This document shows, in pieces, positions 62 to 36,701 of a stretch of DNA of 44,102 bases. The notes beneath the pieces are model-generated. The model ran no database searches and was not told where the DNA came from. It worked only from the letters and a program-made list of their open reading frames with translations. The stretch comes from Halocafeteria seosinensis. Its lineage: Eukaryota. The position numbers and the translations under genes were made by a program. The number at the start of each line of letters is the position of its first letter. Within the stretch, counting starts at the first letter, position 1. The stretch lies in NCBI GenBank assembly GCA_001687465.1, contig LVLI01000173.1, forward strand, positions 124,001-168,102, given 5' to 3'.

Positions 62-3000
62 CTAGAAGTGCTGTCTCGAGCCCGCAGTTTTTCGCTTGGC
101 GCTCCTCTTTCGTCCGATGCGGCGAGCCGAATGCGAAGCCACAGGTCTTACGCTAGGGAGAGTTTGTGCAAATTCTTTCTTCTCCGATTTCGTTCGTTCC
201 AGGCGTCTACGTCGCGACTCGCTGTGGTACTTGGCCTCGTGGGACAAGCTAGCGCGTTTCTTGGCAAATTGTAGCTGCCGAGCGTGATCATTGGTTGCCA
301 TTGCGGAAAGAGGATTTGTAGTACCCCCATGAGAAAGGTTCGATTGCCCCTTGGCATTATCCACTTCCACTTCAACAAGTGGAGCCGGTTCTGCGAGAAG
401 TTTGGATTTCCACACTCGGAAATTGAGCAAGGTTTTACTCGAAGCTTTAAGCTCAGACGTATCGACATCAGTTGCCTTAGCTACTTGCGTAGGCTTATTT
501 TTCACCGAAGGGGGTTCATTGGTCGAGAGACGAGGCTGCTTTACTGACACGACGCGCACACTTTGTAGTTGAATGGGGGTTCGTTTCCCTACATCAACAA
601 ATTGCGCAGAACCTGCCCTTAGGAGCTGCTTGTCGCCACCCGAGTGCAGCGCTAACGGATTTCGAGTGGGGGTCGGATCTCTCTTCAGTTCCTTTCCGCT
701 CGAGCTATGTCCCGTCACCGTCGTATACAAAAACTCGCTTTCTGATATGCCTAGATTTTGAGCGTAAATTTGCAGCGGATCATCATACCGCTGCATACGC
801 TTCTTATTGCGCTTCCGCTTATATGCTAACAGGAAGACGGCCAGTATACAAAGAGTCAGAGCCACAATTCCAGGAATGATTGCTCCCACAATATCATTCA
901 CGCCTAGGTTACTTCCTGCGACAGCTGCTGCTGGATCTTCATCGTCTGGATTAGTGGAGCTCACTGTTGGAGAGGCTTGCAACTGATCTAACGAGGCGGA
1001 GGGTGTCTTCTTTGTCGACAATGGCGTGTGCTCTCCAGTTGCCGGCGATGTCGGAATGCTTCTGGAAGATGACCAAGTAGAAGAGGCTGGCGAAGACACG
1101 GTTGGGCTCACTGTTAAGAACAGAGGGCGACGTCCAGAAGCTGAAGGGGTCGACGTAACAGATACTGTCGGAAATGCGGTGACGGAAGACGTTACGGTGG
1201 TGCTGACAGAGTTTGAAGCGGAAGAAGTCGGAGTGGGAGATACCGAAGGTTTCGTAAGACCGCCCCCTTGAAAACGTAATATTGGAAGGCCGTCTTTTTC
1301 TCCAATCTTCCAAATGTCAGCATCCCACATTTTGGAACCATTGTAGTAGTATAGCTGGTTCATGATCTTATTCAAATCTCCAGAGTTACCAATGCTTGAA
1401 ATGCTAGAAGCCCCGCTTCCCACCATGACTCTATCTGTGGATACTGAGTACTTCACTGACACAGAATCAGCTTGCGGTGACACACCACCTATTATCCCGC
1501 CAGTGTCACCGAGTTCGGACGACGCATTTCCACTAGAATAAGTCTTTTCGATTTTAAGTGAACCTTCCCGGTATGCAGCATTGGAACCGCATATCCCACC
1601 AGCTTCGTTTGCTAGAATGTTGCCCCTCGCGTACGAATTAGCAATATAGACCGAACCTTTATTTCTCGCTGTATGTTGCCCAGCAAGACCTCCACCTGCC
1701 GTACCTGTGATATCTCCCATAGAGAAGCATTCAGAAACCCGCGTTTCTCCCTTTAAGAAAGCCGCACCGAAACCTAGAATCCCACCGCTTCCGTGACCAC
1801 CAATATCTCCCAAGGAATAGGAACGATGGACCTCGCATTTTCCGTCTTCTCCGCCACATCCTCCACCAATGAGGCCTCCAGAGCCATGTCCATCAATGCT
1901 TCCACTGGAACAGCAGCCGGTCACGTTTACAACTCCCCCAACTCGTCCTGCGAATACGCCGACGATTCCACCAGCAGTCTCTAATATTCTGCCAGTCGAA
2001 GAGCACTCAGAGATCATAACATGACCCCCTTCAAAACCACACTTTGCCCCACAGATTCCTCCTCCACCTTGACTATCAAGAAATATACCCGTCACGAGCC
2101 CTGTAGAACTGCAATGGTGAATTTGAGCAAAGCGTTGCTGTGGTTGGAGAATAAACCCGCCTTGAGGACTCGTTTCCCCGCCCTTCATGTGAACGCCGAC
2201 TACAACAGGGGAATGTCCAAGTGAAGAAATGCTCTTATTTCCACCTACAATGAATCCGCCGAAATTGGTGACTCCATCAAGGCGAATTTCGTAGTTGTTC
2301 CCGTCCAGCGTTTCTCCAGACATCAAGGACAGGAATGTTCGATTATCGTAGTAGTCCAACCAGGTAAAACTGCACCTCTGTTTGAACGTGGCAAGCGATT
2401 CCACAAACTCAAAACAGTCCTCTTTACCCTCGAGGATGGATAGTCGGAGATCATGGAATCTCAAGATGGGGGCATTCGTTATAGAGTGGACAAACCACGT
2501 ATCCTCTGACCACCTGACCTTATGGTTATATGTGTACAGTCTTCCAAGAATCTCGTCCAGATTTCCCGAGTTTCCAATACTGCTGGTAAGACGGTCTCCA
2601 TTTTGTCCAACTATTGCAGGTGGTGGTGGTGCGTCCACAGAGGACCCCACGGACACAGGCTGAACCGGCGAGGGGTTTCCACTAGGCCCAGCAAACACTG
2701 AATACGAAATGCTCACCCACTTAGGATTGGAGCCTATACTGGCAATGATTCCGCCCGCCCCCGCGGCAAAACTGATATCTCCACTTGCATACGTGCTTAC
2801 TATGGATATGTTCCCGCCTGAAGAAGCGGTCATTGCACCCGTTATTCCACCTCCTCTTCCTTTGACGTCTCCAACTGAGTAACAGTTTCTTAGAGACACT
2901 GTGCCTCCCCTACCTGCCGTCTGCATGCCTGTAATGCAACCAGCGCCATCAGAGACAACGTCTCCCTCCGAGTAAGATTCAACAATGGAGATTATTCCCC

Positions 3001-5240
3001 CATCTGGAGCAGTAGCACCAGCGGCAATGCCGCCTGCACCTTGTCCTTGCACGGTCCCTAGAGAATAGCACTTGTCAATATAAACGCTTCCACCTTTCAT
3101 TCCTGCTTCCGCAGCAAGAATACCTCCAGCAAATTGGCCTATAATTGTACCCGTCGATGAGCACCTAAATATCTCGGCGGAACCACCGTTAATTCCGAGT
3201 CTGCCTCCAACTATCCCACCTGCACCTGTCCCTGGGATATCTCCAGTTGTTCTTGATCGCGATATTTTAACGTTTCCCCGGTTCGCTGCACAAGCGAAAC
3301 CACATAATCCGCCACCACGGGCACCTCCATCGCCGCCTTGCAGTACTCCTTGAACGATTCCCGTAGAAGTGCAGAAATCGATCTTGAAAAACTTCTGCAT
3401 CGAGGTTACGATGAAGCCGCCACTTGCACTGGTTGTACCACCCCGCGTGTGAACGTTTACGATTAATGGCGCTTCATGGATGTCGCTGATTGAGTCCTCT
3501 TCAGCAACTACGAAGAGACCAGAAAACCCTCGGATACCACTCAAGTCTACAGTGTAGCCGTTACCGTTAAAGGTCTCGTTGGGTCTCAAGCTTATAAACG
3601 TACTACCCAATCTCCACGAGAGGTTGCATATTTGGCTGAAGGTCTTTTTGTCGTGACTATACTTGGTACATGCACTGTCTCCCTCCATGATGGTTAGGCG
3701 ACGGTCCTGAAATCTCAGAACAGGTGGATCATCCGAAGACCAAACAACCCACGTATTGTTGGACCACTTTTGCTCACCATTGTGCTGGTATAGCTGTCCT
3801 TTTATATCAGTAAGATTGTTGGAATTTCCTTCTAGTTCATCGATATTTTCCACTCCCTCGCCTACGATTCCATCTATCACCGGAGCCAGCGAGCGTACTC
3901 TTGTCGAGTCTTCAGAGCTCTCCTCATCTTCCAGAGCGAGTCTTCGCTGTAACATGGGGCGCCGACTTAGGGCAAGAGGTGGAGAATATACGGAGTATCG
4001 GATACTGACCCGGCTGTTCGAGTAGACCTGGCCGATGATGCCTCCCGCATCAGAATGCACTTCCCCACTCACATATGCATTAGTAACTGACACATTGGTC
4101 TTCCTTGGGTCTCCGTATGAGTTGTCAGTCCCAGCCACCCCCGCTATGCCTCCTGCTCCTTTTCCCTTTACTTGACCGGAGGAGTAGCAATTGAGTATGG
4201 AAATGGTGCCAGCTCCCGTTCCTGTTACTGATATTGCTCCTGCGATACCACCAGCATCTCTTCCTAGTATATCCCCCTTGTTGAACGAGCTGGTGATGGA
4301 GACGCTTCCACCATGTCTCCCTGGAGCAGCACCAGCAATGCCCCCAGCGCTCTGTTCTAGAATTGCCCCTAGAGCAGAGCATTGATGGACGGACACATGC
4401 CCGTTTTTCATACCACCTTCTCCCGCGAGTATACCACCAGCGTATGCCGCTTCAATAGTTCCCGCTGAAACGCAGCCACTTATTTCTGCTGTACCTCCTT
4501 CCAAGCCCAAGCGACCACCAGCAATTCCTCCGGCCCCAGGTCCTTTGATGACGCCATTGAAAGTCGTTCGGAATATCTGCACTTCTCCTCCATTCAACGC
4601 ACACATAAATCCGCATATCCCACCGCCACGTTTGCCGCTGTTATTTTGGATACTACCTTGGACGGTGCCTGACGCACTGCATGAGTCGACTTTAAAGAAC
4701 TTCTGCTCAGCCTGAACAATGAACCCACCTCTTGTGCTTGTTTCCCCGCCAGAAGTATGAACGTTATGAATGAAGGGAGACGAAGTAAAGTTGCTAACTC
4801 CTTCAACAATGAAGAGTCCTTGGAATCCAGAAATACCGGAAAGGTCAATGTTGTAATTGTTGCCGTCAAAGGTCTCATAAGCTTGCAATGTGATGAAATC
4901 TCCAAGCCTAACCCACGTTATGTCGCATAGTTGGTCAAACCGCTCCCAAACAGTGTTATAATGGATACATTCCACTTCTCCAAGAATTATAGAGCCCCTT
5001 AAATTACGTCTGGGAGGGGGACTACTGCTGGGAGAAACTGTGGGAGTTGGAGAAGGTGTAGGAGTTCTTGTAGGAACTGATACGTTCCCCATGCAAAATT
5101 CGGGACCGCTGTACTCCAAATAGTACTCCCGTTCCACAGTCTCAAATATAGGCTGATAGTCGGCTCCGCTTGGACACAGCTCTCTCTGGTTTCCCGGGTT
5201 ATTGTGTAATTCCCTGGACGAGAATGTAGACGGTGTCCAA

Positions 5241-5282
<42 letters not shown>

Positions 5283-8200
5283 ATGTATGGCACCGACTTA
5301 CACTTCAAAAAGATGATCAGGGGAAACTCCCACAAATACATTTTCCGGGAGAATTCGTAGCAAGTTGCTTGAGAGGATGCTGAAGCAAATGAAGAATATG
5401 CACGGACGGAACCGTTTCGATCAAATAAATTTGAGTACACATACATTCCATCAACGCGTTTAATTCCCTTAAATGCGTTTTCATCAATTACCCTTAACTG
5501 GTTTCCTTCCAAATCTCTGGTAGCTCAGATTCAAGGGTAAAACATTCGCTCGCAGCTGCGCTATGCTAAATCCCAACGTACATTAGCTCCATGGTCTCAG
5601 CATCGTCGAACAAGCCACCCGGTAGATGAACCAAATGATTCCGACTCAGGTCTCTGTAGCGGAACCAGGTATTAGTAGCGGTAGCGGGTCTCTGTGTGCA
5701 CTAAACGGCTTACATAAATTGAACGGATTCCAATCCTGCAAACGCGGCTACTGAAAGTGTCTGCAAACTATTGCCGTTAAGTCGTCTGCCAAGCGGTGGC
5801 ACCGGAAGAAGCATGTATTCAGTCAAAACAAAATTCCTGAATTGGAAGGAACTGCTTACATATCTCTGAGGCTTTCCGTATGTCTGAATCGACCACCGGG
5901 TAGATGCATCAAAGCATTGTGTGATAAATCCCTGAGACAGTCAGCAGTTTCCTAAGTTTTCCGAGCTTTTATCATGCAGATCAGGGTAGACTCACAGGTC
6001 ATGCAAGTTAGTCAGCCCCAAGAATGCATCTTCGGGCACATCGACAATTTCGCATTGTGACAATTCCCTGGAACACAGGTGTATAGTGAAGTACACTCTA
6101 CCACTTTTTTAATGCACTTCTAGACTCACAATCTCGATAACGAGTGCAAATGAACAAATGCTGCCCCGGGAAGCGATTCCAAATGATTTTGGCGGAGCTC
6201 TCTGAGGGTTCATGGCATAAAATGGCAGGCTTTCCTCCTTGTCAGGAATTGCGGAACTTGGAAGTCACTTACAGTGTATGGAGCCGGTTCAAACCAATGA
6301 ATGAGTCATTTGTGAACGTCTCCAGTGAATTTACCGAGAGATCGCTGTAGCAGAAGATTAAGTACATTGCTGGCTGCAATTTTTTCTTGCAACGAACACT
6401 TACAGATGATTCAGCGACCCCAATGAGTTGAAAACATTACTCTTCAGCATGGTGATGAGATTCCCCCTAAGGTGTCTGCAGCAAAAATATATTTTTGGAT
6501 CCACAAGGCAAATCCGAAAAGTTGCGATTCTACGCCTTACAGCCTACGTAACGATGCCAATCCTGCAAAAGTGTCCTTGTTGAGCTCTTCCAAGTTATTA
6601 TTTTCCAAGGATCTGCAAACAGCGACAGCATCGTCAGCATCGTCAGCAAGGCTCATGTGGCGTTCTACCAAGAGAGTCATTGTGGTTGCTACGTACAAAG
6701 TTCTAAGCAAGTGCAGGCCCTTAAATGTTTTCCCTTTCAGTTCTTGCAACTTGTTCCCATCCAAGGATCTGCTTTGACAAACAAAAGCGTGTTAACTTAT
6801 ACCCGTCTCAAGCCTCTGAAATTCACATACAGAGTGGTCAAGGAGTCCAGGGTTTCAAACAGCCCAGGTCCCACGGAGCTTAACTCGTTTCGCTCGACAT
6901 GGCTGCAGCCGGTAGTGCTATGAGCTTCATTCCACGAAGTCTAAAAGTACACCTGAATGACTTACAGATCTGTCAGAGATGACATGCAGTCAAATACTCC
7001 AGGCTTTAGAGTACTTATTTTGTTTCCACTTAGACGCCTGTTCCGCAGCAACAACGCATCAACAGAGTCATGAGGTTTGGTAGAGTAGTTCATGAGATAT
7101 TCCCATACAGGTTTGTTAGCGATTCCATACAGCCGAACACGGCAGGCTCCAAGGCGCTGATTTTGTTTCTTTCAACATGCCTGCAGTAGTGGTACAAAAT
7201 AGCATTCTTACATATTGTGGTTGCACCAGTCAAAGCTACGTACAAATTCCGCAGGGTTGAAAGATTTCTAAATATCCCCTCTTGTAAGCCTGTAAGAGGG
7301 TTGTTTTCCAACCGTCTGTGGAGAATAAGAAGGGCATTGAGTTCAGGAACTATGAGGCAACCATGAGTTTGGTGAACTTACAGGTACTCAAGACTTTGCA
7401 GGTATTCGAATATACCGTCTGGAAGTCTCGTTAGTGCAGTGTGCCTAATAGTTCTGGATAAGTAGCATAACGTTTTCTTTCTGCCAAACATGGCAACGGT
7501 CCCAGATACTGTAACAGTACTTACAGTCGCCGAAGGGATAATAGTCCCAAGAAAACGTCCGGGTCTAGTGTCTCCAGGCTGTTTGCTTGTAATTCCCTGT
7601 AGTAATAGGCAGTATACTTCTTGTAGCTGCTGGACTCCACACTAACTCCAGCTGAACTTTTTATTGCCTTACACCTTGTGCAAATTTGTCATGTCTCTGA
7701 AAAGCCCTCTTGGTAGACTTTTCAAGCGATTCCCCGAAAAAGTCCTGTAAAAACAGGGTAATCTAACATGCATGAACTCTTCCATTGCTGTGTACACTTA
7801 CAGTGATGATACTTGATGCTGCTTCAAGAAGGCATCAGGATGAACTCGCTCAAAATTCCCTGAGTAAACATTCCTGCGTGAGTCCAATGAGTTGTAACGC
7901 ACGGCTTCTTTAATGTATGTATGACGTGTAAATCACGTACACATTATTTTCGCAATTGAAACAAAACAGCAGCGTCGTTTTGCCCTCCTTTTCATCGCAA
8001 ATGCAGGTGCACGCATGAACCCCACAATTCGTTTCCGCAAGCGTTCCTATGCAAAACTGGTCGACGTCTGCTGCTGTCTCGTCCAACTTGTCGAAGGTAG
8101 TTTCTGGTGGGCAATATGCTGAGCTCTCCCCAGGATTGTTTATAAGTACTCTGCCCATGCGTTAGAGTAACTCTATTCGCACTCTAGACAGTATCTGTAC

Positions 8201-9914
8201 TTGATTCACTTACACGCTCTCCAGCTTTTCAAGGCCAGAGGTGAAATTGTGTGGAATGAAGAACAGCTTATTATGCTTCAGGCTCCTGGAAGAGGTTCAA
8301 CATCTCCCCGAGGAATATATCGAAATGGCATATCTATAGAGCACCAACAATACGTACAACCAGCGTAACTCATCGAGACCATCAAAGGAATCCTTGAAAA
8401 TCCTCCCGACATTACTGGAACTCAGGTCTCTGCACCAAGATGGTCCATGTATAAAGCTATGTCTCCGCTACACATGACCTGTCGACTTGATCGCTTACAA
8501 TTGCTTTAAATTCTTCAACGGAGTGAAAGAGGTCTTATGAATCGTCTTCAAATTATTTTCGGTCAAGTTCCTGCACGGCAAAGGTATTGAGTGGAATTGA
8601 ACGAGAATTTAGCAAGGCACAACACATCTTGTACCATACAGTGCTTCCAGAGAGGCCAGGGGCTGCAAGACATCCGCGTCCAGAGGCGTCGACATTGCAT
8701 TTGCTCCAAGGTCCCTGGAACAAATCCATTTCGATTACACAGAATCTAAAGTATTTTCGCTCTTCATAAAAGCTCACAGAAACCGCAGCGCAGCCAAGTT
8801 TTGAAAACTATTAGCAGACAGATGCTGAAGATGGTTTTCTCTGTAAATTCTGCGCCAGCGAGAGTCATTCCCCATACCGGCCACGCACAACAAGCATATA
8901 CGTAATGAAGGGGAGCTTACAAAGTCTTCAAATGTGTCAGTCCCTCAAACCAGTCGCTTTGTATACCTCTCAAGTCATTGTTGCTCAACTCACTGTGTGT
9001 ACAAGTTCAGGTACCAGCATAAGTTACTGCTTTCCCCGTGGTGTGGACACTTACAGCTTCTGAAGATTGGGAAAGTTAGTAAGCACACCATCAAGGTTAT
9101 GAAACTTGTTCCTCGAGAGATCTCTGGGACATTTTAAGAGTTAATTGCGACCGGTAATACCATAGAAGGTTATAAAGTTCTGTATCGAGGTGCTCGTACA
9201 GTTTTTCCAGGTCTTGTATACCATCAAATGTTTCATGATCAAGATCCCATGCTTCAAGGTTGTTGCCGGAAAGGTCTCTGAAACCCAGAATAGCATCAAG
9301 GAGAATATCTTACCATTCCCAAGAACTTAACGCCCACTTACAGTTTCTTTAACTGAGTCAACTCTTTGAATGGGCTTCCTGCTAGTGAGGATAGGTCATT
9401 GTCAGCCAAATTCCTGCATTGGACCCTTCATGACGGAACCAAAGGCTGATGACTGAGGAGAAAGGCCTTCCTTACAAGTCCACAGTATCTTTAACTTCAG
9501 AGAATGCGCCACGTTCGATACGCAAGATGCCTTGTCCACTCAAATCGCTGCACCCAGAAAAATATGGCAGACATATTGTCACCCCACGCCTCCGGATCAA
9601 ACTTACATTGTCCCAGAACATCCAGTACACTTCTTCAAGGTAACATCCTCTCTTTCTTCTGAGTTGCATGTACATGTACAATTCGCGCCTGATTTCTCCA
9701 CACATGAACTTCCGGATTGCAAGTGCCGTCTGACAGACCTCCGGAGATAGTTATGCTGGCCATTATCACCACCATTCGCCCCGACGCGCCCAACGGCGCA
9801 CGCAAGTATCCCTAGCAAACAAAATGCCTTTACGTGCGCCTTTGGAAATTTTGCCACCGCTGCTGAAGTGCAGCTGCTGGATAGACAGCTTCCTCTCTTG
9901 CGAGGACGAGTCAT
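62..9914 (-). CDS. 32-exon LRR + GLUG-like-module type-I membrane receptor/adhesin (~2589 aa): hydrophobic leader, Cys cap, 10 LRR, Cys cap/cap, 19 LRR, Cys cap, P/S/T linker, 3 GLUG-like modules, S/T stalk, TM, ~250-aa tail
   Basis: Hand-spliced exons: 9607-9914, 9476-9547, 9342-9413, 9200-9277, 9055-9123, 8921-8992, 8778-8849, 8640-8714, 8499-8570, 8358-8429, 8214-8285, 7941-8150, 7802-7873, 7673-7744, 7525-7596, 7382-7453, 7244-7315, 7109-7180, 6966-7037, 6831-6902, 6697-6768, 6541-6612, 6404-6475, 6273-6344, 6130-6201, 5996-6067, 5860-5931, 5714-5785, 5582-5653, 5445-5516, 5302-5379, 62-5213. All 31 introns are GT(AAG/ACG/ATG/GAG)...CAG, 57-88 nt, phase 2. The total of 7770 nt is open in frame. 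Exons translate as LRRs (e.g. DLSRNHLVHLPGGLFDDAETMELI). The TM segment IVGAIIPGIVALTLCILAVFLLAY is followed by KRKRNKKR. Confidence 0.9.
5244..5278. repeat. (GA)17 microsatellite in the last intron (5214-5301) of the LRR gene
   Basis: Perfect GA run read directly. It produces the artefactual LSLSLS in the ORF track. Confidence 0.95.
5302..7873 (-). repeat. LRR block 2: 19 single-repeat exons (18x72 nt, 1x78 nt)
   Basis: For example 6130-6201 ELRQNHLESLPGAAFVHLHSLSRL and 5302-5379 ILSSNLLRILPENVFVGVSPDHLFEV. Exon+intron period is ~130-165 nt. Confidence 0.92.
8214..9547 (-). repeat. LRR block 1: 10 single-repeat exons (7x72, 78, 69, 75 nt)
   Basis: Each exon encodes xLxxNxLxxLxxxxFxxLxxLxxL, e.g. 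8921-8992 ELSNNDLRGIQSDWFEGLTHLKTL. Canonical splice sites flank every exon. Confidence 0.9.
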
Positions 9915-21232: not shown

Positions 21233-21462
21233 CAAGCGAAAAGGCATTTTTACAAGTCAACATTAGCCAACCAGACTCTTTTTGTCGACGGAGGAACCTA
21301 CAGGGTAAAGTGTCTAGGAGCTAAAACACGGAATCCTCGTGCAGAAAAAGTGCTGCTGGTCACGTACAACGTGCTACATGGCATGATGACCGCATTTCGC
21401 CTTAATTTACACTGTGAAAGCAGCACTGGTGCCAACAATGTACTGTAGAGAAAACCACAAGC

Positions 21463-23892
21463 ATGGTCTACTGGATTATGACAGGTCAGCTTCTTCGGAT
21501 GTTGGGGAATCTTCTTTTCATTATGGGGGGATCCTCCCCGAAGATGCGAATGTCAAAACATGTCGATTCACAGACTCCGCACCACCAGCAGAAACAGCAA
21601 CGTAGACTCCCTGTCGATACAGTGGAACCAAAGGACGAAAAGCCAGAGACAGACTCAAAGATACCACAAGCGTATCCTGGATTGAGTAACAAGGAAGACG
21701 AGGAGGAAGACCAGCAGCGGCAAACTCTTAGTGGCGCGCCCCAGTTCTCATCTGAACAGAGGCTCTGGGCAGGAATTGTGCATCATATACTTTGTACACT
21801 ATTCCAAGCACTTCTACCTGTTTGCACAGCCGATGCTATGTTCACCCGCGAAGTCATTGGACACAGGACAAAGACCAGAGTATGCCGAAGGAGAGCTGCA
21901 TATACTAAGGAAACATTGTCGAAGTACTTGACTGGAGCTTTGGTTTTAGTAGCAAATTGTGGCATCCATGCAATGGACCTGCGGGATTCAATTCAAAAGG
22001 AAGGAGAAAGCTGTTTCAAGTATATCGCAACCAAGAGTTTATTCGAGTTGAATTGCACTCTATTGAATTGGCAAATTGCTGGGTATAGCACTGATCATTA
22101 CATTACACTCAAAGCAAACGAAACATTTGATGGGAAAGACAATGAAATTGAGCTCGTGGGTACTGGTGCATTTGAGGGACTCTTCGTGGTAGATTCAAAT
22201 GTTTCGTCCCTGGAAGAAGCTCCAGTCATTCGGAATGTCCATGTAAAGAACGGCGAGACAGCAGAGGATGGAGGGTTCATCGTTCGGTCAAATCAGAGAT
22301 TTTTCGCTGTGGATTCATGTAGCTCTTCAGGAGTAATACATAAAGGTGGAGGTGGAATATGTGGGAGATTGTGCGGTAAAGCAAGGGGTCATATTCTGAT
22401 TTCTGGGTGCAACTCGACAGGCGTTATCAGAGGCAATGATGCCGGTGGGATTTCGGGGGACCATATCGCAGCGACAGACGGTAGAGCAAGAATCGTAGGT
22501 TGTCATTCAGCCGGGAAAGTCGAAGGAAACAACGCAGGGGGTATTGTAGGTAGCAGCGTCGCTTGGCACCATGGTATGGTAGACGTTGTCGAGTGTTTTT
22601 CTACGGGAGACATCGATGGAGCGCGTTCAGGTGGCATTGCGGGTGCTTATGTAGCCCGTGAGGGAGGTAGAGCCAGCATGACTGGTTGCTATTCGACCGG
22701 AGAAATCCGACGAGCCTATTCAGGAGGCATTGCTGGCCACTCTGCAGGCGGTTATAACGGGATATTAACGATTCAGCGATGCCACTCTGAAGGAGATATT
22801 ACAGGAAATTTGGCTGGAGGAATTACAGGGACAGAGGTTGGTACCAATGCTGGACTCGTTACAATACGACGATGCTATTCTAGCGGACAAATCGCGGGAA
22901 GCAAGGCAGGTGGCATCACGGGATCAGAGACCTCAAACTATAATGGGTACACGACAATAGAGCAATGTTACTCTTCAGGAAACATTGATGGTTTTAGCAG
23001 CGGAGGCATATCTGGCTATGCTGCTGGCGAGGATAACGGCAAAGTGGAAATAAGAAATTGCTATTCTACTGGAGGGATCAATGGATCGCATGCCGGGGGT
23101 ATTTGCGGCGGTGGAACGGGACGTGAACGTTGTAATGACTGTAATGGTGGACGGGTCTTTATCACCAATACATATGCGTCTGGTACCATCAAAGATGACG
23201 CCGGCGGAATCCTAGGAGGTATCAGTCCAGAGGCACAAACTGTCGAAGTAAAATACTCTGTGTACGATGGTGTTTCAGGTGATATGGTGGGAGCAGGAGG
23301 AGGATCGGTCAACGATACAGTCCACATCAATAATTCCGATGACTTGAACGACATAAAAGGAAAATTATATCTGCAGGGCGAGAGCAACCACTGGTCGAGT
23401 GATACATGGATTGTAGGACAAAACAATGGATTGCCAAAACTCCGAGTCCGTGCAATAATCACTCCTACGAGCTCTTCGTCTCCGACAACGAGTCCTACCG
23501 AATGGACAACACCAACATCGTCACTAACCACTTCGCCGTTTCCTTCGGAAACTCCTAGCAGCACGCAAACGCTGACCCCGACAGGAACGCCATCTCAATC
23601 GATGACACCAACACCGACATTAACCTCTTCATCGTCTTCTTCAAAAACTCCCACTTGTACGCAAACGTCCACGCCGACTATGACGCAATCTCTAGCGAGG
23701 ACATCAACACAGTCACCAACCTGTTCTTCATCTGCTTCAGAAACTCCTAGCACGCAAACGTCCACGCAGAGGATGACGCGGTCTCGCGTGCGCGCTACAA
23801 AGAGGCTACCAATGCAACGACCTGGAAGGATCTCTACTAGTGGCCATAATGCCAGAGGCAGGACGTCAAAACACAAGCGCCCCGGGATCTAG
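21463..23892 (+). CDS. Single-module GLUG-like Gly-rich protein with S/T/P mucin-like tail and basic C-terminus (up to 809 aa, start uncertain)
   Basis: Intronless ORF with the same module as its neighbours (MDLRDS...CF.Y...ITLKANETFDG...FEGLF...EAPVIRNVH...GGFIVR...; ~26-aa repeats CYSTGxIxxxxAGGIxG; KW...W...LPxLR end). Two hydrophobic segments precede the module. There is no C-terminal TM helix. Confidence 0.88.
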   Translation: MVYWIMTGQLLRMLGNLLFIMGGSSPKMRMSKHVDSQTPHHQQKQQRRLPVDTVEPKDEKPETDSKIPQAYPGLSNKEDEEEDQQRQTLSGAPQFSSEQRLWAGIVHHILCTLFQALLPVCTADAMFTREVIGHRTKTRVCRRRAAYTKETLSKYLTGALVLVANCGIHAMDLRDSIQKEGESCFKYIATKSLFELNCTLLNWQIAGYSTDHYITLKANETFDGKDNEIELVGTGAFEGLFVVDSNVSSLEEAPVIRNVHVKNGETAEDGGFIVRSNQRFFAVDSCSSSGVIHKGGGGICGRLCGKARGHILISGCNSTGVIRGNDAGGISGDHIAATDGRARIVGCHSAGKVEGNNAGGIVGSSVAWHHGMVDVVECFSTGDIDGARSGGIAGAYVAREGGRASMTGCYSTGEIRRAYSGGIAGHSAGGYNGILTIQRCHSEGDITGNLAGGITGTEVGTNAGLVTIRRCYSSGQIAGSKAGGITGSETSNYNGYTTIEQCYSSGNIDGFSSGGISGYAAGEDNGKVEIRNCYSTGGINGSHAGGICGGGTGRERCNDCNGGRVFITNTYASGTIKDDAGGILGGISPEAQTVEVKYSVYDGVSGDMVGAGGGSVNDTVHINNSDDLNDIKGKLYLQGESNHWSSDTWIVGQNNGLPKLRVRAIITPTSSSSPTTSPTEWTTPTSSLTTSPFPSETPSSTQTLTPTGTPSQSMTPTPTLTSSSSSSKTPTCTQTSTPTMTQSLARTSTQSPTCSSSASETPSTQTSTQRMTRSRVRATKRLPMQRPGRISTSGHNARGRTSKHKRPGI

Positions 23893-26632: not shown

Positions 26633-29600
26633 TCACTTCCTTCTTGCCCTTCTCCCTTTTCTAACGCTTCTCAAGTTTACTGGTGTAGATGAGGGGGCGT
26701 TCGTGTCGCCAGGTTCCACGGGCTCTGAAGAATCATCTTTCGTATTTCCAGGGCCAGAAGGCAGCGTTTGTGCAAATTCCTTTTTAGCACCTCGTCCTTT
26801 GTTCAATCCTTTATGGGAATTGTACCGCTCGTGCTTTGCCTCTGCTGAAATCGAACTTCTTATGCTTCCTCGCTTCCTCGCATATTGTAATTGGGGTAAC
26901 CCGGCTGCCGCTGCTACTGCTTGATTCCGCTTTGTTTCTCCATCTTCATCATTGTTAACCTTTACCTCTACTAACGGCGGAGGTTCTGCCAATAGCCTTG
27001 CCTTCCACTGCCGAAGTTTGAGCTTCATTCTATCGGCTGTTCGCATATCGGATTTATCAATGGAACTTGCTAAGGCAACTTGCACAGTGCAATTTCCACT
27101 AACGGATTTTCTTCCTTCGCCTACGTTGGGTTTGTTGATTGATACGACTTTTACCTTGCTGGCCGGGGACGCATACGTTTCCAAATCCACAAACATCACC
27201 TGAGGGATCGTCGAATCATCAACCGTCGCGGCAGCCCCCAATTCCGGGTCATCCGCTGAAGTGTTTCCGGTGCTTATCTGCGAAGAACTAACGTATTCAA
27301 CTATCCTTGCTTTTAAGGTCTGTTCTTGGGCTTTACTCGTTGCTTGAGTTCGCTTCCTATCTCGGTCCATCTCCACAGACGGCAAAGCGCGACTTGAGGA
27401 GGACGAGAGCGGATTGAGATGGGCTACATTCTCCTCTCCTGTAATGTTCTTAGTCCGTACTGCAGACTGCTGTCCCTGGATCAAGGAGCCGGTGTTGCTT
27501 TTCCTAGTCCCTACACTCGAACTGCTCGAAACTGCGCTTTGTCCAATTGCCGATGGACGGGCGTCCATATCTCCAGAAGAGACAGTGAACTTAGATGTAG
27601 GGATACCTAGTTGAGTGGCATATAGTTCTGAGGGATCCCTAAACTTCTTCGAGAGAGTTTGGTTACGAGTGCGTCGGTAGCCAATGAATAGGAACAGCAG
27701 TAAAATAAATCCAGCGATCAGCGAGGGGGCTAGTATTGCCGAAACGGTAGATTGGGGGTCAGCTGCAGACCTCTCCTGTCCAAGCGAAGTACCCCCATCT
27801 GAGGATTCGTTGGCCATCGTAGAAGACACGGTAGATGTCGCCGAACTTATGCCTACGGTCGAAATAGGAGTAGCTGAGATCATTCTCTTAGTGACAGGTG
27901 TACCTGATGACGAAACCATCGCAGTAATTGTCGTTGCCGGAAAAGAGGCACTCGGTGAAATGGACGGAGATGAAGACTGGCTCGGACGCGGAACAGGCTG
28001 CTTTCCTTCGAAGGCCAATGCAGGTGGTTCATCGTACTGGTGTACAGTCCAAATATCTTCAGACCAACTCCAGAGATTATCATGGACGTAAAGCTGGCCT
28101 GTAATGTCTTCCAGATTTGGCGAGTTGCCTCTCTCAATTAAAATTGTCTGATTCGCCACCTCACAACTTGGCGTCCTCCTGTTTTCCCCTCGATACACCG
28201 AAAACTTCAGCTCCACCAAGTTAGGTTCAGTGAACTGACTGTCGAAGACGGACTTCATCGGCACTGCAACAGTTCCAAATACAGGTCCAGAATGAATATC
28301 GGGATAGCCTGATGAATAAACATTACGAACTGTAACATTTCCTCCATGGAGACCTGTACCCCACCCACAAATTCCTCCAGCGGCTTCACCAACAGTACAT
28401 CCTGTAGTATAGCTGTTCACGATAATCAGGTGTCCATATCTCCGGGCAGCCGAGCTACCAGCAATCCCACCACTAAAAAGCCCGCTGATATTCCCATTTG
28501 TATAGCACTGAGATATGTACACCGAACCGTGGTCAAACGCAGACCGTGGTCCAACTATTCCGCCACCCGAGACAGACTTCACTTCTCCTTCCGAGAACGA
28601 CTGAAATACGCGTACCAACCCTTTGTTGGCACCAGCTAGACTACCGCAAATTCCGCCTGCATTTTCCCCATGGATCGTCCCTGTTGAGGAACAACTATTC
28701 ACGTCAGCAAAGCCTCCGTCTTCCGCAGTCCGTCGACCAAATATTCCTCCACCACGAGCACCAATTGTCCCAGTTGAGGACGAATTTACAACCTGCACGT
28801 GCCCTCCTTTTCCTCCGGCATTTTCGCCGCATATACCCCCAGCGCGACGAGCTATATATCCTGTAGAGCTGGAATTCTCAATGACGAAATTGCCTGGACC
28901 GCCTTGGACAATGAACCCGCCTCCAGAAGATGTCCCTCCGTTCTTCATATGCACATTTTGCACTGTTATGGTTCCGTAGCCGTTGTTGGTGTTAGAATCC
29001 CCCGAATTCTCCAACTGGCGGATTGATAAAGACGAACGTGGAACCTCAACACTGTTACTGGTATCACCACCAATTAAACCTGAAAACTCAAACACACTCC
29101 TCATGTCCATTTCATAGTCATTTCCCTCGAATGTTTCGTTCTTCCTCAAAGATATGTAAGCCTCGTTGTCGTAAACGTCCCTCCATCGAAATGAGCACGT
29201 CAGCACAAATAGCATTTCCTCAGGGAGATGAGAAATGCATCCTTCCTTTCCCTGATGTGTTATCATTTGTCGACGGTCACCGGTCAATAGAGGTCTCCCG
29301 CAGCTAGTGTTATATTCCTCTTTCTCAAACTTTAAAATCGGTAAACTATCGCCTTCTTTATGCCAAGTATCATTCGACCATTTTGCCACTATTCCACCAG
29401 GAATATTGAGACTATCATTCACGGCAGACAGCCCGTCGGAGTTTTCTAGTTGAACAAATTTCCCAGTTATGTTTGCATCGGCAACTGGTGGCGCACAGTA
29501 TAAAGAGTTCCTAATCTGGATGGACCTACCAACACTAACACCCAAGAAGCCAACGAGCCCACCACTGCTATTGCCTTCTGTTTTTCCAGATGCGTAACTA

Positions 29601-32600
29601 TTCAAAATAAGAACCTGTCCTCCATGGCTAGCCGTTTGTGCTCCAGAGATTCCTCCTGCTTCATCACCCGAGATGATACCGGTTGTATAGCAATCTAATA
29701 TGCTGCCGACACCGTGATAAGATCCTAAGTCCCCACCACATATCCCACCGCTTCCCTGTCCCTTTATGGCTCCCGCAGAGAACGAAGCTAAAACAACGAC
29801 TGTCCCATTGTCTGAAGCCGCTCGCTTGCCTAAAATGCCACCCGCTTGGGAACCTAGAATGTCCCCTCCGTCTTCTCCACTGTAACAATTCTCAATGTCG
29901 ATACGACCTCGGTGAGCTCCAGCTTCCCTACCAACTATCCCTCCTGCTCCATCACCTGTAATGTTACCGAACGAGGTGGATTTGCGAATAACAACGTGCC
30001 CTCCATAGCTTCCACATTTTGATCCACAAATCCCTCCACCTCCCGGATAGTTGACTCCACCAATGGTCCCTCTCGAACCACAACACTCAATTACAGCAAA
30101 CATTTGATTCTTTCGAAGAATGAACCCTCCGTCCGTATTTGTGGCACCGCCGACAGTTCCAACATTCCTAATAATTGGCGCTTCGTCAAACGACGTCACG
30201 CTTTCACGATCCACCGAAAATATGCCGTTGAATTGTTTGCTGTCACTAAGATGGATTAGATAGTTGTTTCCCTCAAATATCTCATATGCTTTCAACGAAA
30301 GATACATGCTTCCGCTATAGTACCTTCCCCATTCGAAATCGCAAGTCAATTGAAACCTCCTTATAGCATGCTCATACGTTATACACTCCGATATTTCAGT
30401 TCCATCCAAGACTGAGGTCCGCAGATCTTGTCGAACTTGGGGCCACTCGTCTCGGGATAAATGAGAAAGAGATGAGTTGGCGGATTCCCCGATTTGGTAA
30501 CGCAAATATGGGAACTCACCCGCGGACCCGGCAACCCAGATGGTCTCAGACCATCTATATTCAGACGCCGCAGACGATACGTTGTACAATTGCCCTCTAA
30601 TTGAACTCAACTGATCTGAATTACCCGTCGCAGTAATGTTTTGAAACCCCTCTGAGAATAAAGGAGGCAGCGCAACCGCTAACTTGATGTTAACCGAATC
30701 AATTGCTTCCCACATGATCCCTGCGGCGCCGTCCACGATACTTCCAGAAGCATAAGCCCGCTCTATCGAGACTAAACCAGTCTTTTTGCCAAGGATACCC
30801 CCTGATTTCCAACCACTGATTTCTCCACGTGAGTACGAGTCTGCGATTGTAGTGCCAGGGTTCGTACCCGTACCCGTCTTTTGACCTCCTATCCCACCAC
30901 TCTCACTTCCAATATTACCCAGAGAAAAACATTCCGATATCTCTACGGAGCCCGATGCTTGTCCAATGATTCCGCCGCTGCCACCGTCTTCTATAGCGCC
31001 TGTCGAGTACGATTTTGAAATCGCTACCTTCCCTTTGAACGAACGACCAGCCCGCGCACCGACTATGCCTCCTGCTCCATCACCTCCTATTTTCCCAGTC
31101 GAGTAGCAGTTGGACAACACAGCTTTACTTGGTCGATAATCAAACTCACCACCAGTGGTATTACACCCAGCGATTCCACCCCCCAAACGATCTATCGTAC
31201 CGGAGGAGCTACATGAATCAACTGTAAAATTGGTTTGACCTTTACGTACGATAAACCCGCCGCCGGGAACCGTCTTGCCACCGTCAGTATGTAAGTTGAT
31301 GATGCGCGGTGCCTCACTAAACCGATGAATTCCCCAATTACTGATTGCAAACAATCCTCTGAAGGTTTTTATAGTCCAAAGATTAATGCGATGATTATTT
31401 CCATCAAAGACTTCTCCAGGAGCGAGAGTAATGTATGCCTTCCCTTGATTGTATTCTCGCCACACAAGGTTCTCGCAAACCAGTTGAAACAATAGTTTAC
31501 TACCATTGTAGTGAATGCACTCATCGTCGTTGTCTCGAAAAGAGTCAGCCATATCCCGAGCCTCATCTGCGGATACGCTTTGTTGTTGTACCAGTTCTCG
31601 AGATACCGGCGGATGCCGTGCCGACGCACACTCCAAACGAGACTTCCGATCCAACAGCGGACGTAGAGTGGGCAACTCCCGATCCTGAAATGACAGGATA
31701 GGAGGCTCGTCCATTACACACTGCCAAATAGCGCTAGACCATTGTACGTTCTCTCCAAATTGATACAGACGACTATCAATATCATCTAGATCATCTGAAT
31801 TGCCTTCGGAGACAGTAATCAGCTCCCCCGTGCTTTGGCCAGAAATGGGTGGAGAAGAGACGGAGTACTTGATTTCTACATGCTCTGCTGGCCTCCATAT
31901 GTTAAGCCCATCGGATACTGTCGCCAACATTCCACCACTTCGATCTTCTTCTTTGACCATGCCAGAAGCGTAACTCGTGTGGATCAGTAGCCTGCCTCCA
32001 TCGATTCCAGCGCGATGCCCGCAGAGACCACCGGCTTCCTTTCCCAATATATCACCACGTGAATAGGAATTGCGAATTTCCACGCTTCCACCGTTCGCTC
32101 CTGTATCAGCTCCACAGATGCCCCCACCTCCTCTACACTTAATGCTACCTTCCGAGTACGCTTGCGAAACCGTTACACTCCCGCGCTCCAGCCCGGCGTT
32201 GTCGCCGACAATACCGCCACTGGAAGTTCCTTCGATGTTTCCTAGTGAAGCCGAACGAAAGATACACACGCTTCCTTTTGATTTACCGGTATCACTTCCC
32301 GCGATACCACCTGCTTTGTAGCCTTGAACGTGGCCATTCGACATAGAGTTTGAGAGTCCTTCTAGACCATCTTCGTGAGTAGAGGACGCCAGAGGCTCCG
32401 CAGGGGCGTCACATGGAGACGAAGAACTCATACTAACGGTACCTCTTGTGGGTGACCGCATGGCACCCGAAACTATACCGACGCCATTCTCAGAGGCAAA
32501 ATCACTACCCACAATCCCTCCGGCATGATCTCCCGTGATCTCTCCGAACGAAGAGCACGTCATGATTTGAACGTGTCCTCTTGAGCCACATTTATACCCG

Positions 32601-35600
32601 CATATACCACCGGCACCCCAACCGTTAATAGCCCCAGTTGAACTACAACCGAAGACTATCGCATACTGCGTTTCTTCCCTCAGTATGAAACCACCTGTAT
32701 CGGCAACGATACCATTTACTGTTGCAACATCTCGGACCATAGGAGCCTTGTCAATGGAGTCAACCGACCGGTCGATGGCAAACAGCCCCGCAAATTCCGA
32801 CGTTGCCGACAGATTGATGACACTATGCCCACCATCAATTGTCTCATCAGCGCGCAGTGAAATATATGCATCATCAGTGTAATTTGAATCCTTCCAGTGA
32901 CAGTCCATTTTCAAAACGATTACAGCCTCAAGGTTTTCTATTTTTTCCCCCGAACACTTCCTGTATTCGAAGCACGGATCCCTTCCGGCAATTACTGAAG
33001 CCCTTCTGTCCCCTGTTCTTGCCTGAAACCAAAAGATTGGCGGCTCTGTGTTCCTATGCATCCAAACGTCACTAGGCCAACGAGATACGCCATTCAATTT
33101 GTATAGCTTTCCTTGAATCATGCTTACATTACGTGCAAGACCTACAATCCGCGGGGAGGACCCAAATCCCACAACCGGTTGAGACCATGAAACCGAGTAT
33201 TTCAGCTCAACGTCCGGGGAGCCAGTTTCCATACTACCTAGAATTCCACCACCAACTTTTTCATACATATCTCCCGAAGCATAACAATTTGTGATGGACA
33301 CGCTACCATTCCAAACCGCAGTGTAGCCTCCGAGTATACCACCTGAATAGTCTCCCTTAATATCACCTGTAGTGTAACTGTTCCGAACCCCTAGCATGCC
33401 ATCAGAGGATGCCGCGAACGAACCACTGATGCCGCCACTCCTATCACCGATAGCATAGCCAATTGTATAGCACTGCTCAATTTGTGCTGTGCCATTCTTC
33501 GCCGCAAACGAACCACATACTCCTCCAGCACCACCACCTTTTATCCTTCCACTGGAAGATGACCGGCTTATTGCAGCATAGCCTCCCCAGGCGCTTGGTT
33601 CCGAACCAGTTATGCCACCAGCTCCGTCCCCTTCAATTGCTCCAGTGGAAATGGAGTCAAGAATTTCGATATGTCCTCCACTAGATCCACACCTACGACC
33701 ACATAGTCCACCGCTGTTAGTGCCTGCACTAGTTCCCGAAGAGCTGCATGATTCCATTCTGAAAAATCTCTGCCAGCTTCGCACGAGAAACGACCCATTA
33801 TCCCCCGTTTGTCCATCTCTTGTATGGACGTTTCGAATAATCGGTGCTTCTCTGACAGACGAAACGCTGCTATTTACAACAAATATCCCTTCGAATCCAT
33901 CAACACATTGGAGAGCAATTTCGTAACCCCCGCCATCGAACGCCTCACCAGCATTCAGCGTAATGAATGAGCTCGGATCGAAATAATCACTCCAGAGGAA
34001 GCTGCAAGTTTGCTCAAACGTGTATGTAGATATATTGTACATTAAACAAGGCACAATACCCTCATCGTTTACGAATGAACGAATGTCGCTCCGGTAATGA
34101 GTTCTCGACAAACTGTTTGGTTGTGGGTCACCACTGGAGACATTATGCTTCTGAAACTGTAGCTCAGGAAACCTGTCGTTTGTAGGAACCATCCAAATAT
34201 TATCACTCCATCGTTGAAGACCGAATGAGTGCAGCAAAGATCCTTGAATGGCATTCAATGAATCTGCGTTCCCTATCGAGCAGGAGATGTAAGCAGCATT
34301 ATTTCCAATAAGTTTTTCTGGGGATGGCGCGGAAAACCTAATGTATATCTGCGGATGAGATATCTCTATAGGACTATCTGTGCGTTCCAATCTCCGGGCT
34401 GGCGGATCTTGTCTTTCCCCACTCGAATACACATTTTCGATCTGTATAATGCCACCGGACATACCCGGATTTGCACCGCAAATTCCTCCTACGTCTCCCC
34501 ACAGTAAATCTCCGGTACTATAACAGTCTTTTATGCTCACAGTTCCTCCGTTACTTCCACACGAACTCCCGCATATCCCACCTCCGTCGGCTTGTATCAT
34601 CCCTGTGGAATAACATTCCCAAACAAATACTAACCCCTCGTCGGAGGCGGCCAGTTTTCCCAAAATGCCGCCACTTCCTGGGCATCCAATATTGCCCCTT
34701 GAAAAGGAACGAATTACTTCTAACCTCCCTCGATTGGATGCTGCTTTCTGGCCAACTATTCCACCGGATCCTTTACCGTTGACCTGTCCATGTGAAAATG
34801 AATTGGTAATCTTGACGCGTCCCCCGCCATGTCCGCAGTTTGCTCCACAGATCCCACCTCCTCCATCAGTTATTTCACCGGTAGACGAGCAAGACAAAAT
34901 TTTCCCAAACGTTTGCCCATTACGCAGAATATAGCCAGCTTGAGGTTCGATACTGCCGTGCTCCAGGTGGACGTTGCGTATTAGTGGGGCTTCCTCGAAA
35001 GACGTCACATGTTGACCCACCTCAAAGAGTCCTTTAAATGCATCAGTACGCTCCAGATCAATAATGTAGTCATTTCCCTCGAAAGTCTCATTCAATGTCA
35101 ATTGAATGTAATCATCGCTGGTGTACCCGAATGCACTCCAAGAGAAATCGCACTGGAGCAAGAACATCTTTTCACCAGGATCGAAAACAATGCAGGAAGA
35201 GTTGTTCGCAAGTACGACTTCGCGTAAGTCTCGGGAGCATACAGACTGGTATGAACTCGTCAAAACAGCAAGAAAACAGATATGAATAGACGATGCCGGG
35301 TGTTTGAAGAGCGGCTTCCTTTGCCTCTGACGTTTAGTCGTCGCCTTTATGAGATCTGACAAGAGTATGGTGACAAGAGCAGACAAAAATAGGACACGTT
35401 TCCAGCCACTCGGGTTTTTATATCCACCCGCATCATGCTCCAGTGAGCCCTCTTGCTCTACTTTACTGACGTCGTTTCTTCCGGCAGGATCAATAGTGCT
35501 AACACAGGTGCTTCGTCTCGTAGCACTTGTCCTAAGTGAATCGTATGTGAGGCAAGACGCGATGCTCTCATGTTTTCTGAATAACTGCCTGTCGTGCGGG

Positions 35601-36010: not shown

Positions 36011-36701
36011 TTCGATACACACAACGTTATGCACTCTATTCCAAAAAGTCTCCGTTCGTGTAACCAATAAACTATCCTATGGCAAAAATATAGCCTATAT
36101 ACTGTAGCCCAGGGACTTCATGTACGCCACGAATGAAAAAAGTTGTTGAAGGTCGCATGCCTGCTTGCGATCAAGACCGTGTGAAACATGGAGACGCGAG
36201 ATATCTTCTTAAAGAAAAAGGATGCAAAGGAAAACAGGTTTCTTCAGCTATGTCTACCAGTAGGTAAAACATGAGACATGCAAGGAGAAGGCCGGCCCAA
36301 GGGAGAAAGGAAGTTTTAACGGCTCGCAAAGTGGAGCCGTTAAGCGGCTCGGCAAACCACAACAACAGCACCAGCATGCTGCCATAGATGGCAACCAACC
36401 ACCACTACTGGAAGTTCGGTTTTGTGTTCTAGATATTCTGATCATACGCTCAAAACTTCGCGCGACCAAGATACGGGCACTCTTGGGTACCGACAGCGCG
36501 GCGGAGAGGGAGTCACACGGGCAAAAGGCTCACCAGAAGCATATACAGTATAGGTACAATAACCACGGTACAAAGCACAAGATCGTACAAGGCAGGTGCG
36601 TGCGTACGTCATCGCTGGTTTGCCACTCTAAAGAATTTCAGCAAAAAAAAGATGCTTCAACCGATTCCCCAACGGTAGGTCACGAACGACTCACCAACAC
36701 C

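Follow-up and report, generated by a model that had tools for sequence, protein, structure and literature searches.

We infer that positions 62 to 9914 on the minus strand of the window (the whole 44,102-nt stretch of DNA analyzed here) hold one 32-exon gene with a chimeric product, likely belonging to a bacterivorous protist. Its 2,589-residue product is likely a single-pass surface recognition receptor or adhesin, formed when a gene for leucine-rich repeats (LRRs) recombined with a gene for beta-helices whose module is probably giant-viral. The predicted product, including its beta-helix fold, signal peptide, and topology, consists of two LRR blocks, three beta-helix modules, a Ser/Thr stalk, a transmembrane (TM) helix, and a tail (Table 1).

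Table 1. Features of the 32-exon gene and of the neighboring family members in the window
Feature	Position	Strand	Basis
Exon 1: ATG, predicted signal peptide, Cys-rich LRR N-cap	9607..9914	-	gene model, hydropathy
Exons 2-11: LRR block 1, ten one-repeat cassettes, phase 2	8214..9547	-	
Exon 12: LRR C-cap then LRR N-cap, 8 Cys, 210 nt, hinge between blocks	7941..8150	-	
Exons 13-31: LRR block 2, nineteen cassettes, phase 2	5302..7873	-	
Intron 31: 88 nt, GTAAGTC..CAG, (CT)n microsatellite inside	5214..5301	-	
Exon 32: large last exon, 5,152 nt	62..5213	-	
Exon 32 start: last LRR strand and LRR C-cap, aa 874-918	5078..5213	-	
Pro/Thr/Ser linker, aa 919-941, 83% S+T+P, putative fusion zone	5009..5077	-	
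Beta-helix module 1, aa 942-1375	3707..5008	-	31-residue coil spacing
Beta-helix module 2, aa 1376-1792	2456..3706	-	
Beta-helix module 3, aa 1793-2188	1268..2455	-	AlphaFold, VIA, Foldseek
Ser/Thr/Pro-rich stalk, aa 2189-2308, 54% S+T+P	908..1267	-	
Single TM helix, aa 2309-2335, then basic stop-transfer run	827..907	-	hydropathy 2.8; helix in model
Conserved basic cytoplasmic tail, aa 2336-2589, stop codon; predicted small alpha/beta core	62..826	-	
Neighbor N2: intronless, a single long module with stalk but no TM, ending in a conserved LPxQRP	21418..23892	+	
Neighbor N3: intronless, six modules, TM, tail as in the 32-exon gene	26633..36076	-	
Neighbor N4: tandem duplicate of N3 at 85% identity, 5' open, with five modules visible	36702..44102	-	

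RESULTS

Gene model

The original prediction held that short exons upstream of the large ORF join it in frame, and the gene model agrees: 31 short exons and the 5,152-nt exon together encode 2,589 residues with a single terminal stop. The asymmetry that had been described is also present, with 31 introns in the first 2,618 nt of coding sequence and none within exon 32, and the 29 LRR cassette exons were all recovered, 25 being exactly 72 nt long and the others 69, 75, 78, and 78 nt. All 31 introns begin with GT, end with CAG, and interrupt the frame in phase 2; they measure 57 to 88 nt, and an in-frame stop is present in 27. Open CAG-72 nt-GT[A/G] segments occur 26 times on the gene strand of 5214-9914, against a chance mean of 0.53 (maximum 4) in 500 first-order Markov resamples, and three times on the opposite strand. 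Intron 31 splits the last repeat at the position used by the other introns (same residue, same phase). The predicted signal peptide in exon 1 has its hydrophobic stretch at aa 28-46 (hydropathy 1.78).

A second allele, found in run X1 as unspliced contigs, differs from the window by at least 57 substitutions in the gene, at least 19 of them intronic, and introduces no stop among the differences listed; among those same differences, both indels inside the gene (6801 and 8196) fall in introns. Exons 1-31 carry at least 8 silent and at least 6 replacement substitutions, and exon 32 carries at least 11 silent and at least 13 replacement substitutions. Word-index searches, which can miss matches, found no protein of 241-3,003 aa containing the LRR/exon 32 junction, and none of the 609 candidates scored when the junction was queried against targets of 241-2000 aa. 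The stop-to-stop ORF of exon 32 extends 311 nt upstream of the exon and has an ATG at 5341.

LRR blocks and the seam within exon 32

The repeats follow the 24-residue pattern LxxLxLxxNxL..F of typical, LRR_8-type LRRs. Over 25 LRR exons the Asn is kept in 20 and the Phe in 24, with L/I/V at the expected places, and Pfam LRR_8 matched all five LRR pieces tested, two of them above the curated cut-off. The Cys-rich flanks of the blocks are homologous within the gene and gave no Pfam LRRNT or LRRCT match: the exon 1 N-cap is related to the second half of exon 12 (alignment score 60, reached by 0 of 500 shuffles), and the start of exon 32 to the exon 11/12 cap (score 69 versus a shuffled mean of 24, 0 of 500). 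Only when exon 32 is joined does LRR block 2 acquire a C-cap. Because the LRR exons are diverged (mean DNA identity 40%, maximum 64%) and no spare LRR exons were found elsewhere in the window, there is no sign of ongoing LRR exon shuffling.

Exon 32 had been regarded as a complete member of the neighboring intronless family by itself, which it is not: the hydrophobic leader seen at the N terminus of family members is missing, and the first 45 codons derive from LRR sequence. The proposed fusion of an LRR ectodomain to that family stands insofar as a single gene unites LRRs with the modules, stalk, TM, and family tail; it does not stand as splicing onto a complete downstream gene, since the last repeat and its C-cap run into exon 32. 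This continuation points to recombination inside exon 32, and because the exon opens with an LRR strand and C-cap, the fusion point is best placed at the Pro/Thr linker (about 5077-5009). Similar linkers precede the modules in P0001, P0003, and P0007. The family's hydrophobic leader is absent directly before module 1, where an LRR C-cap and linker are found instead, the leader being in exon 1. The 32-exon gene does not share the intronless state of the neighboring family. The argument that a long exon proves foreign origin was rejected: an unrelated neighbor (12845-18022) also has a 5-kb exon, and such an exon alone would be weak evidence of foreign origin.

Beta-helix modules and architecture

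The three modules are predicted to be right-handed beta-helices homologous to the GLUG/IgA1-protease N-terminal type. The GLUG-like reading of the original prediction was confirmed by fold and profile homology, although Pfam Glug (PF07581) matches none of the four window family proteins; some relatives (P0017, P0200, and P0130) do pass it. AlphaFold modeling, which had been proposed as a check, gave a pLDDT of 88.3 and a pTM of 0.88 for module 3, and VIA aligned this model with NosD (Z 22.5, rmsd 3.3, 295 aligned), IgA1 protease 7uvk (Z 21.9, rmsd 3.4, 260 aligned), the adhesin PfbA (Z 21.8), and 3n6z (Z 20.4). At the sequence level, phmmer and the A1 profile returned nothing significant from the PDB, and only the deeper family profile (A5) found 3n6z, at E 1.2e-9 and with the C-terminal W..W..P cap included. 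The nearest Atlas clusters were Glug and Peptidase_M26_N, both at 0.95, with a recognition value of 2252 that lies under the 2300 mark and is weak alone. The invariant module columns are Gly, Cys, Trp, Leu, Phe, Ile, Tyr, Pro, and one N-cap Glu, and module 1 is sister to module 2 in the trees. An M26 metalloprotease domain is absent, exon 32 being fully covered by cap, modules, stalk, TM, and tail, and neither Pfam nor NCBIfam gave a protease match.

The combination of LRRs, beta-helix, and TM, which had been flagged as unrecognized, was not found elsewhere, with none of 216 relatives carrying this LRR type; the gene layout and the LRR/beta-helix pairing, however, each have precedents. Metagenome gene callers do not splice, and an LRR C-cap upstream of the modules was hence used as an extra test; among 215 proteins, only the 32-exon gene has one. 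A cassette LRR, cap, or tail was found at 0 of 117 loci, none of which is of eukaryote type. The literature search found no protist protein with GLUG, LRRs, and a TM, and "GLUG motif" was absent among the matches listed. LRR cassette exons, GLUG-type beta-helices, and domain shuffling are each already known.

Family and tail

As had been claimed, exon 32 carries the modules, stalk, TM, and conserved tail of the neighboring family, with which it forms one clade (100/99). The neighboring family members are intronless, their ORFs measuring 9.4, at least 7.4, and 2.5 kb, and the eukaryotic intronless family also has 7TM and TM-less forms. In the 216 retrieved relatives, the module is present in 206 and both caps in 109; the conserved TM tail occurs in 20, all with capped modules; at least four TMs lie behind the module in 11 and an LPxQRP end is found in 11. 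The modeled tail has a pLDDT of about 90 over a small alpha/beta core, for which Foldseek gave no match and the VIA list was filled by the TM helix. The product of the 32-exon gene has one TM and a tail with no Pfam or NCBIfam match, and a TIR, kinase, or 7TM signaling domain is absent. A word-index search with the tail scored 0 of 7,990, which is a false negative since the expected P0003 was missed too, and a tail motif scan of metagenomes confirmed 0 of 80 stretches.

Relatives and origin of the module

The closest relatives found for the modules outside the family are giant-virus proteins, including those of CroV: the top Foldseek BFVD matches of module 3 are CroV E3T4R2 (E 4e-11) and E3T4G7 (E 1.6e-9), and 9 of 13 related IMG/VR loci are named GVMAG. 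Matches to the family motif code for modules in 5 of 6 viral, 84 of 88 metagenome (GC 21-40%), and 1 of 5 prokaryote-genome cases, the last being a 3.3-kb, 32%-GC contig with a Hint domain. The low-GC metagenome contigs are mostly assigned to viruses only by their GC, their genes, and their resemblance to GVMAG loci, and no capsid or polymerase marker was present among 58 ORFs from 12 of these loci. Profile scores at 22 IMG/VR loci have a median of 106 and a maximum of 199 bits; in Bacillota, the one phylum covered by the bacterial search, the best score is 65 bits, and 15 of 301 genomes match at E<=1e-6. No phage match was found, and P0017 and P0010 as queries retrieved no viral locus.

Rooted on two bacterial rows, both long branches, the tree joins the eukaryotic clade (100/99) to one viral-type subgroup (99/97). 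Nine long or odd rows were left out of the trees and two groups were thinned; a third Bacillota row, which grouped among the viral rows, was left out of the rooted tree. Without a root, the eukaryotic and viral-type sets are the two sides of one branch. We regard the module as probably of giant-virus origin and later expanded without introns, although the AU test does not reject viral monophyly (p 0.19). The idea that CroV itself was the donor was set aside as unproven: L007 is a long branch within the wider subgroup, and it does not group as sister to the eukaryotic clade. The literature search gave no account of the CroV proteins; the ~250 unexplained CroV-like proteins noted in a 2026 preprint may be described in its supplements.

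DISCUSSION

In the reading that we favor, the crossover between an intron-rich LRR gene and an intronless gene of the beta-helix family would have fallen within the last exon of the LRR gene, immediately past the C-cap, and this exchange at the Pro/Thr linker would have swapped in the modules, stalk, TM, and tail. Giant viruses are the probable source of the module, which then expanded without introns. In the protein, two capped LRR horseshoes at the tip may bind a protein or cell-surface ligand on a prey cell or virus particle, the beta-helices, which show no conserved catalytic set, may serve as rigid, possibly glycan-binding rods holding the tip far from the membrane, and the family tail may couple binding to uptake or signaling.

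The same fused receptor could instead contain a module that is bacterial, or an old eukaryotic domain captured by giant viruses. Host genes are often taken up by giant viruses, GLUG/M26-N beta-helices are common in bacteria (as in the Bacillota genomes above), and both the AU result and the single branch separating the eukaryotic and viral-type sets without an outgroup would accommodate such a history. We nevertheless consider it unlikely: bacterial profile scores fall well under the viral ones, viral-type copies are widespread and diverse, and the family lacks introns in a genome rich in short ones. Where a source is given, the capped module comes only from one transcriptome (GECG) and from ENA contigs; the other capped matches carry no source.

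Two further alternatives concern the product, and both appear improbable. That the modules are surface-anchored polysaccharide-degrading enzymes of the lyase or tailspike type, targeted to prey capsules by the LRR part, would suit a fold common to pectate and alginate lyases and phage tailspikes (Z 18-22), but identity to these is 7-14% versus 14-17% to IgA1-protease-type beta-helices, which gave the only clear sequence match, and no Asp, Lys, Arg, or His is invariant among the ten window modules. Slightly more doubtful still is separate expression of the LRR exons and of the large exon, through an ORF from the ATG at 5341 across intron 31 (with a hydrophobic MYLWEFPLIIFL.. leader) or as an LRR-less isoform. 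Such products would be compatible with an exon 32 frame open to 5524 and with introns 30 and 31 plus exon 31 summing to 231 nt, a multiple of 3. The LRR part, however, lacks its own stop, cap, and anchor, exon 32 starts with half a repeat and its cap, and the ends of intron 31, GTAAGT and CAG, are textbook and fall at the phase usual for the repeat. Read-through would also traverse a dinucleotide microsatellite, and such tracts are prone to frame-changing slippage.

Little is known about the receptors for prey and viruses in bacterivorous flagellates, and the 32-exon gene is a concrete candidate for one. More tentatively than the fused receptor itself, it is possible that a phagotrophic protist lineage domesticated a giant-virus beta-helix domain into an intronless receptor toolkit and grafted a cassette-exon LRR gene onto it, yielding a virus-host chimeric receptor with 29 in-frame-skippable exons that could vary the binding tips for prey or virus recognition. 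The forms in this toolkit would be single-pass, 7TM, and secreted. The gene also displays a domain fusion, with the seam narrowed to about 70 nt within an exon, and it points to an undescribed receptor family, perhaps the roughly 250 unexplained CroV-like proteins of the 2026 preprint. If the viral origin is true, a giant-virus domain was turned into host surface receptors.

Comparison with known systems

Like the GLUG/Peptidase_M26_N beta-helices (BACOVA_03286 3n6z; 7uvk), the modules are predicted to be right-handed and parallel, with GG[ILV]xG turns. They differ in their Cys-bearing 31-residue coils, eukaryote-type N-cap, lack of an M26 protease domain, scores under the Pfam Glug threshold, and placement in a eukaryotic type I membrane protein. 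By both fold and sequence, the best relatives found beyond the family are giant-virus beta-helix proteins with a Hint domain (CroV E3T4R2 and E3T4G7; GVMAG), which have 29-31-residue coils in common with the window modules. LRRs and a GLUG-type beta-helix also share one chain in proteins with BspA-type LRRs (L006:1640-3757, L073:6219-13097, and P0056), of which the bacterial-looking P0056, with MucBP and a C-terminal TM, is membrane-anchored like the product of the 32-exon gene. L006:1640-3757 sits on a GVMAG contig. These proteins have LRR_5 rather than capped 24-residue "typical" LRRs, place the beta-helix first, and have no introns, and we therefore consider the pairing convergent and not the source of the 32-exon gene.

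Toll and Slit LRRs are laid out as N-cap, repeats, C-cap/N-cap hinge, repeats, and C-cap, and the LRR part of the 32-exon gene shares this capped multi-block layout by analogy only. The terminal exon of glycoprotein hormone receptor genes encodes a 7TM GPCR, whereas that of the 32-exon gene encodes beta-helix modules and one TM. The fshr and lhcgr genes are otherwise similar in having small LRR exons, of 69-81 bp, followed by a large terminal exon (PMC4536197). Amphioxus FrLRR is an LRR fusion reported to bind bacteria and promote phagocytosis (PMC10199209); this too is an analogy only, and the 32-exon gene product has no TIR, EGF, or folate-receptor domain. The Ectocarpus LRR genes differ in their type I consensus and ROCO/kinase partners. 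One repeat per exon is nevertheless reported both for Ectocarpus, where the exons measure 72 nt, and for Tetrahymena, with phase-2 exons of 90 bp (PMC3341825, PMC6564038), and these genes and the 32-exon gene have in common symmetric cassette exons that permit shuffling.

Gene structure and proposed fusion seam

The gene on the minus strand at 62-9914 parses into 32 exons with a 2,589-aa spliced frame, reproducing the 31 introns and 29 LRR exons of the original prediction. All 31 introns run GT..CAG, lie in phase 2 and measure 57-88 nt, and 27 of them contain an in-frame stop. One LRR occupies each of 29 exons, 25 of which are exactly 72 nt, and open segments of the form CAG-72-GTR numbered 26 against 0.53 expected (500 resamples, maximum 4). 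A second allele in the unspliced contigs of sequencing run X1 differs by two indels, both intronic; none of the 57 substitutions listed creates a stop, and these fall in introns (19/2,083 bases), upstream exons (14/2,618 bases) and the 5,152-nt terminal exon (24). We consider it very likely that the LRR exons and the large exon form one spliced gene.

Layout of the gene product and positions of other features in the window
Feature	Location (strand)	Size or spacing
Predicted signal peptide, then Cys N-cap	N-terminus of gene product	
10 LRRs	after N-cap (block 1)	
C-cap/N-cap hinge	exon 12, between LRR blocks	
19 LRRs and last strand, then C-cap	block 2	
Pro/Thr linker	between LRR C-cap and module 1	23 aa
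Three modules	after Pro/Thr linker	~400-430 aa each
Ser/Thr stalk, then one TM	C-terminal to modules	
Basic tail	after TM	254 aa
Short repeats upstream of the gene	11466-11530, 12342-12405	875 nt apart
Uninterrupted ORF	12845-18022 (-)	5.2 kb; 1,725 aa
Short intron in the PH-like end of this protein	near 12880-12820	
MFS transporter gene, several ORF pieces	18825-20697 (-)	
N-terminal extension of N2	21418-21975 (+)	
Degenerate copies of N2 LPxQRP end	24620-24710, 25930-26030 (+)	
Relic of multi-TM end	~25010-25340 (+)	
N3 and N4, tandem duplication	26633-44102 (-)	10 kb
N-terminal extension of N3	35230-36076 (-)	

The opening 45 codons of exon 32 can be aligned to the cap that exons 11/12 encode (score 69; 0/500 shuffles). 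Since block 2 would be uncapped without exon 32, this homology is the best sequence argument for splicing of the last intron. The predicted LRR/module fusion stands, but its seam is not at the exon junction: exon 32 opens with an LRR cap, which shifts the seam to the linker that follows, within the exon. As read from sequence, the LRR gene's own last exon appears to be broken after its cap. The linker resembles the inter-module linkers of relatives, and recombination may have occurred at such low-complexity tracts.

Module fold and family

AlphaFold modeling, proposed originally as a check, gave a beta-solenoid for ten window modules (pLDDT 88.3, pTM 0.88; last 40 residues uncertain). Structure matches in VIA were parallel beta-helices (Z 22.5-20), with NosD, IgA1 protease, Pel9A and PfbA tied as best. 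The family profile matched putative IgA1 protease 3n6z (E 1.2e-9) and Pfam Glug did not match the window family proteins, so the earlier term GLUG-like is correct in the sense of shared ancestry but does not place these proteins within the Pfam family. Across the ten modules, no set of catalytic residues is conserved.

A HMMER search over 1.84 billion representatives found 842 proteins at E<=1e-30, the best 150 of which were taken. Among 216 retrieved proteins, 206 carry the module, 109 both family caps and one a Kelch domain; their C-terminal ends include TM tails (20), multi-TM ends (11) and LPxQRP (11), and the window LRR profile had no significant match among them (best E 0.13). Where a source was shown, capped members trace to GECG, a EukProt transcriptome presumably of Halocafeteria seosinensis, or to ENA contigs that bear long single ORFs. 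Window and GECG modules are intermixed in trees, at mostly just 35-43% identity. In eleven proteins (P0005, P0019, P0084, P0100, P0128 and others) a multi-TM end occurs with the module and either Cys-rich repeats or further domains, a likeness to adhesion GPCRs; multi-TM members from genomic contigs are single ORFs. The GC content of the window, ~48%, fits the 46.8% given for the diploid genome of H. seosinensis (bioRxiv 10.64898/2026.06.25.734631), which is the likely source organism.

Neighboring features

N3 and N4, both intronless family genes, have near-identical modules and a diverged stalk and tail (85% overall). The putative extensions of N3 and of N2, another family gene, are long, with two hydrophobic segments ahead of module 1, and several relatives have similar ones. 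The degenerate LPxQRP copies are likely relics of further family genes; the multi-TM relic resembles that end of family member P0162 (tblastn E 1.6e-7). The 1,725-aa protein, with a duplicated helical region, a weak Arm_3 match and a PH-like end, may resemble Melted/VEPH1. The transporter gene is probably split by introns, and the short repeats (93-95% identical, with further copies in X1) are possibly a small mobile element.

Origin of the module

The top viral Foldseek matches of the module were two Hint-domain proteins of the giant virus CroV. Searching IMG/VR with the family alignment gave 13 loci, nine of them GVMAG. Locus L007, on a 617,453-bp contig, encodes a 963-aa Hint protein of the same length as CroV E3T4G7, and we infer that it is CroV. 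A motif scan confirmed module-coding loci in 5/6 viral, 84/88 metagenome and 1/5 prokaryote-genome cases. Some Bacillota genomes also match the module profile (15/301), with a best score of 65 bits versus a median of 106 across 22 viral loci. The eukaryotic family is a single clade (support 100/99) that, with two bacterial rows as root, groups with a viral-type subgroup (99/97); under this rooting viral monophyly is not rejected (AU p 0.19), and L007 is not sister to the eukaryotic clade. We lean slightly toward a viral origin of the module. Three short contigs of a 'Proteobacteria' MAG (L023/G005) carry viral-type module proteins and are probably mis-binned giant-virus DNA.

Proposed function and comparison with known systems

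The product would be a type I surface protein whose LRR horseshoes bind ligand at the tip, projected on beta-helices acting as rigid rods and on the mucin-like stalk, with the tail relaying binding inward. The tail has a predicted small alpha/beta core for which Foldseek and VIA returned no recognised fold, the VIA list being dominated by the TM helix. A non-enzymatic receptor or adhesin is the probable identity. Its most likely role in a phagotroph would be prey capture or virus recognition; the analogues here are amphioxus FrLRR (PMC10199209) among LRR receptors and PfbA among beta-helix adhesins.

The architecture, unrecognised in the original prediction, was not met elsewhere: neither the sequence searches nor the literature searched gave capped LRR blocks of the typical class joined to such modules. 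In the sequence searches, gene calls made without splicing conceal fusions of this kind. The gene is known from one copy only. Beta-helix and BspA-type LRR share a chain in viral-type L006:1640-3757 and L073:6219-13097, the latter additionally with DUF285 and Hint, and in bacterial-looking P0056; relative to the gene, their domain order is reversed and their LRR class differs. The one-LRR-per-exon pattern is like that reported for Ectocarpus (PMC3341825) and Tetrahymena (PMC6564038), and in fshr and lhcgr, too, a run of small LRR exons precedes a single large terminal exon (PMC4536197).
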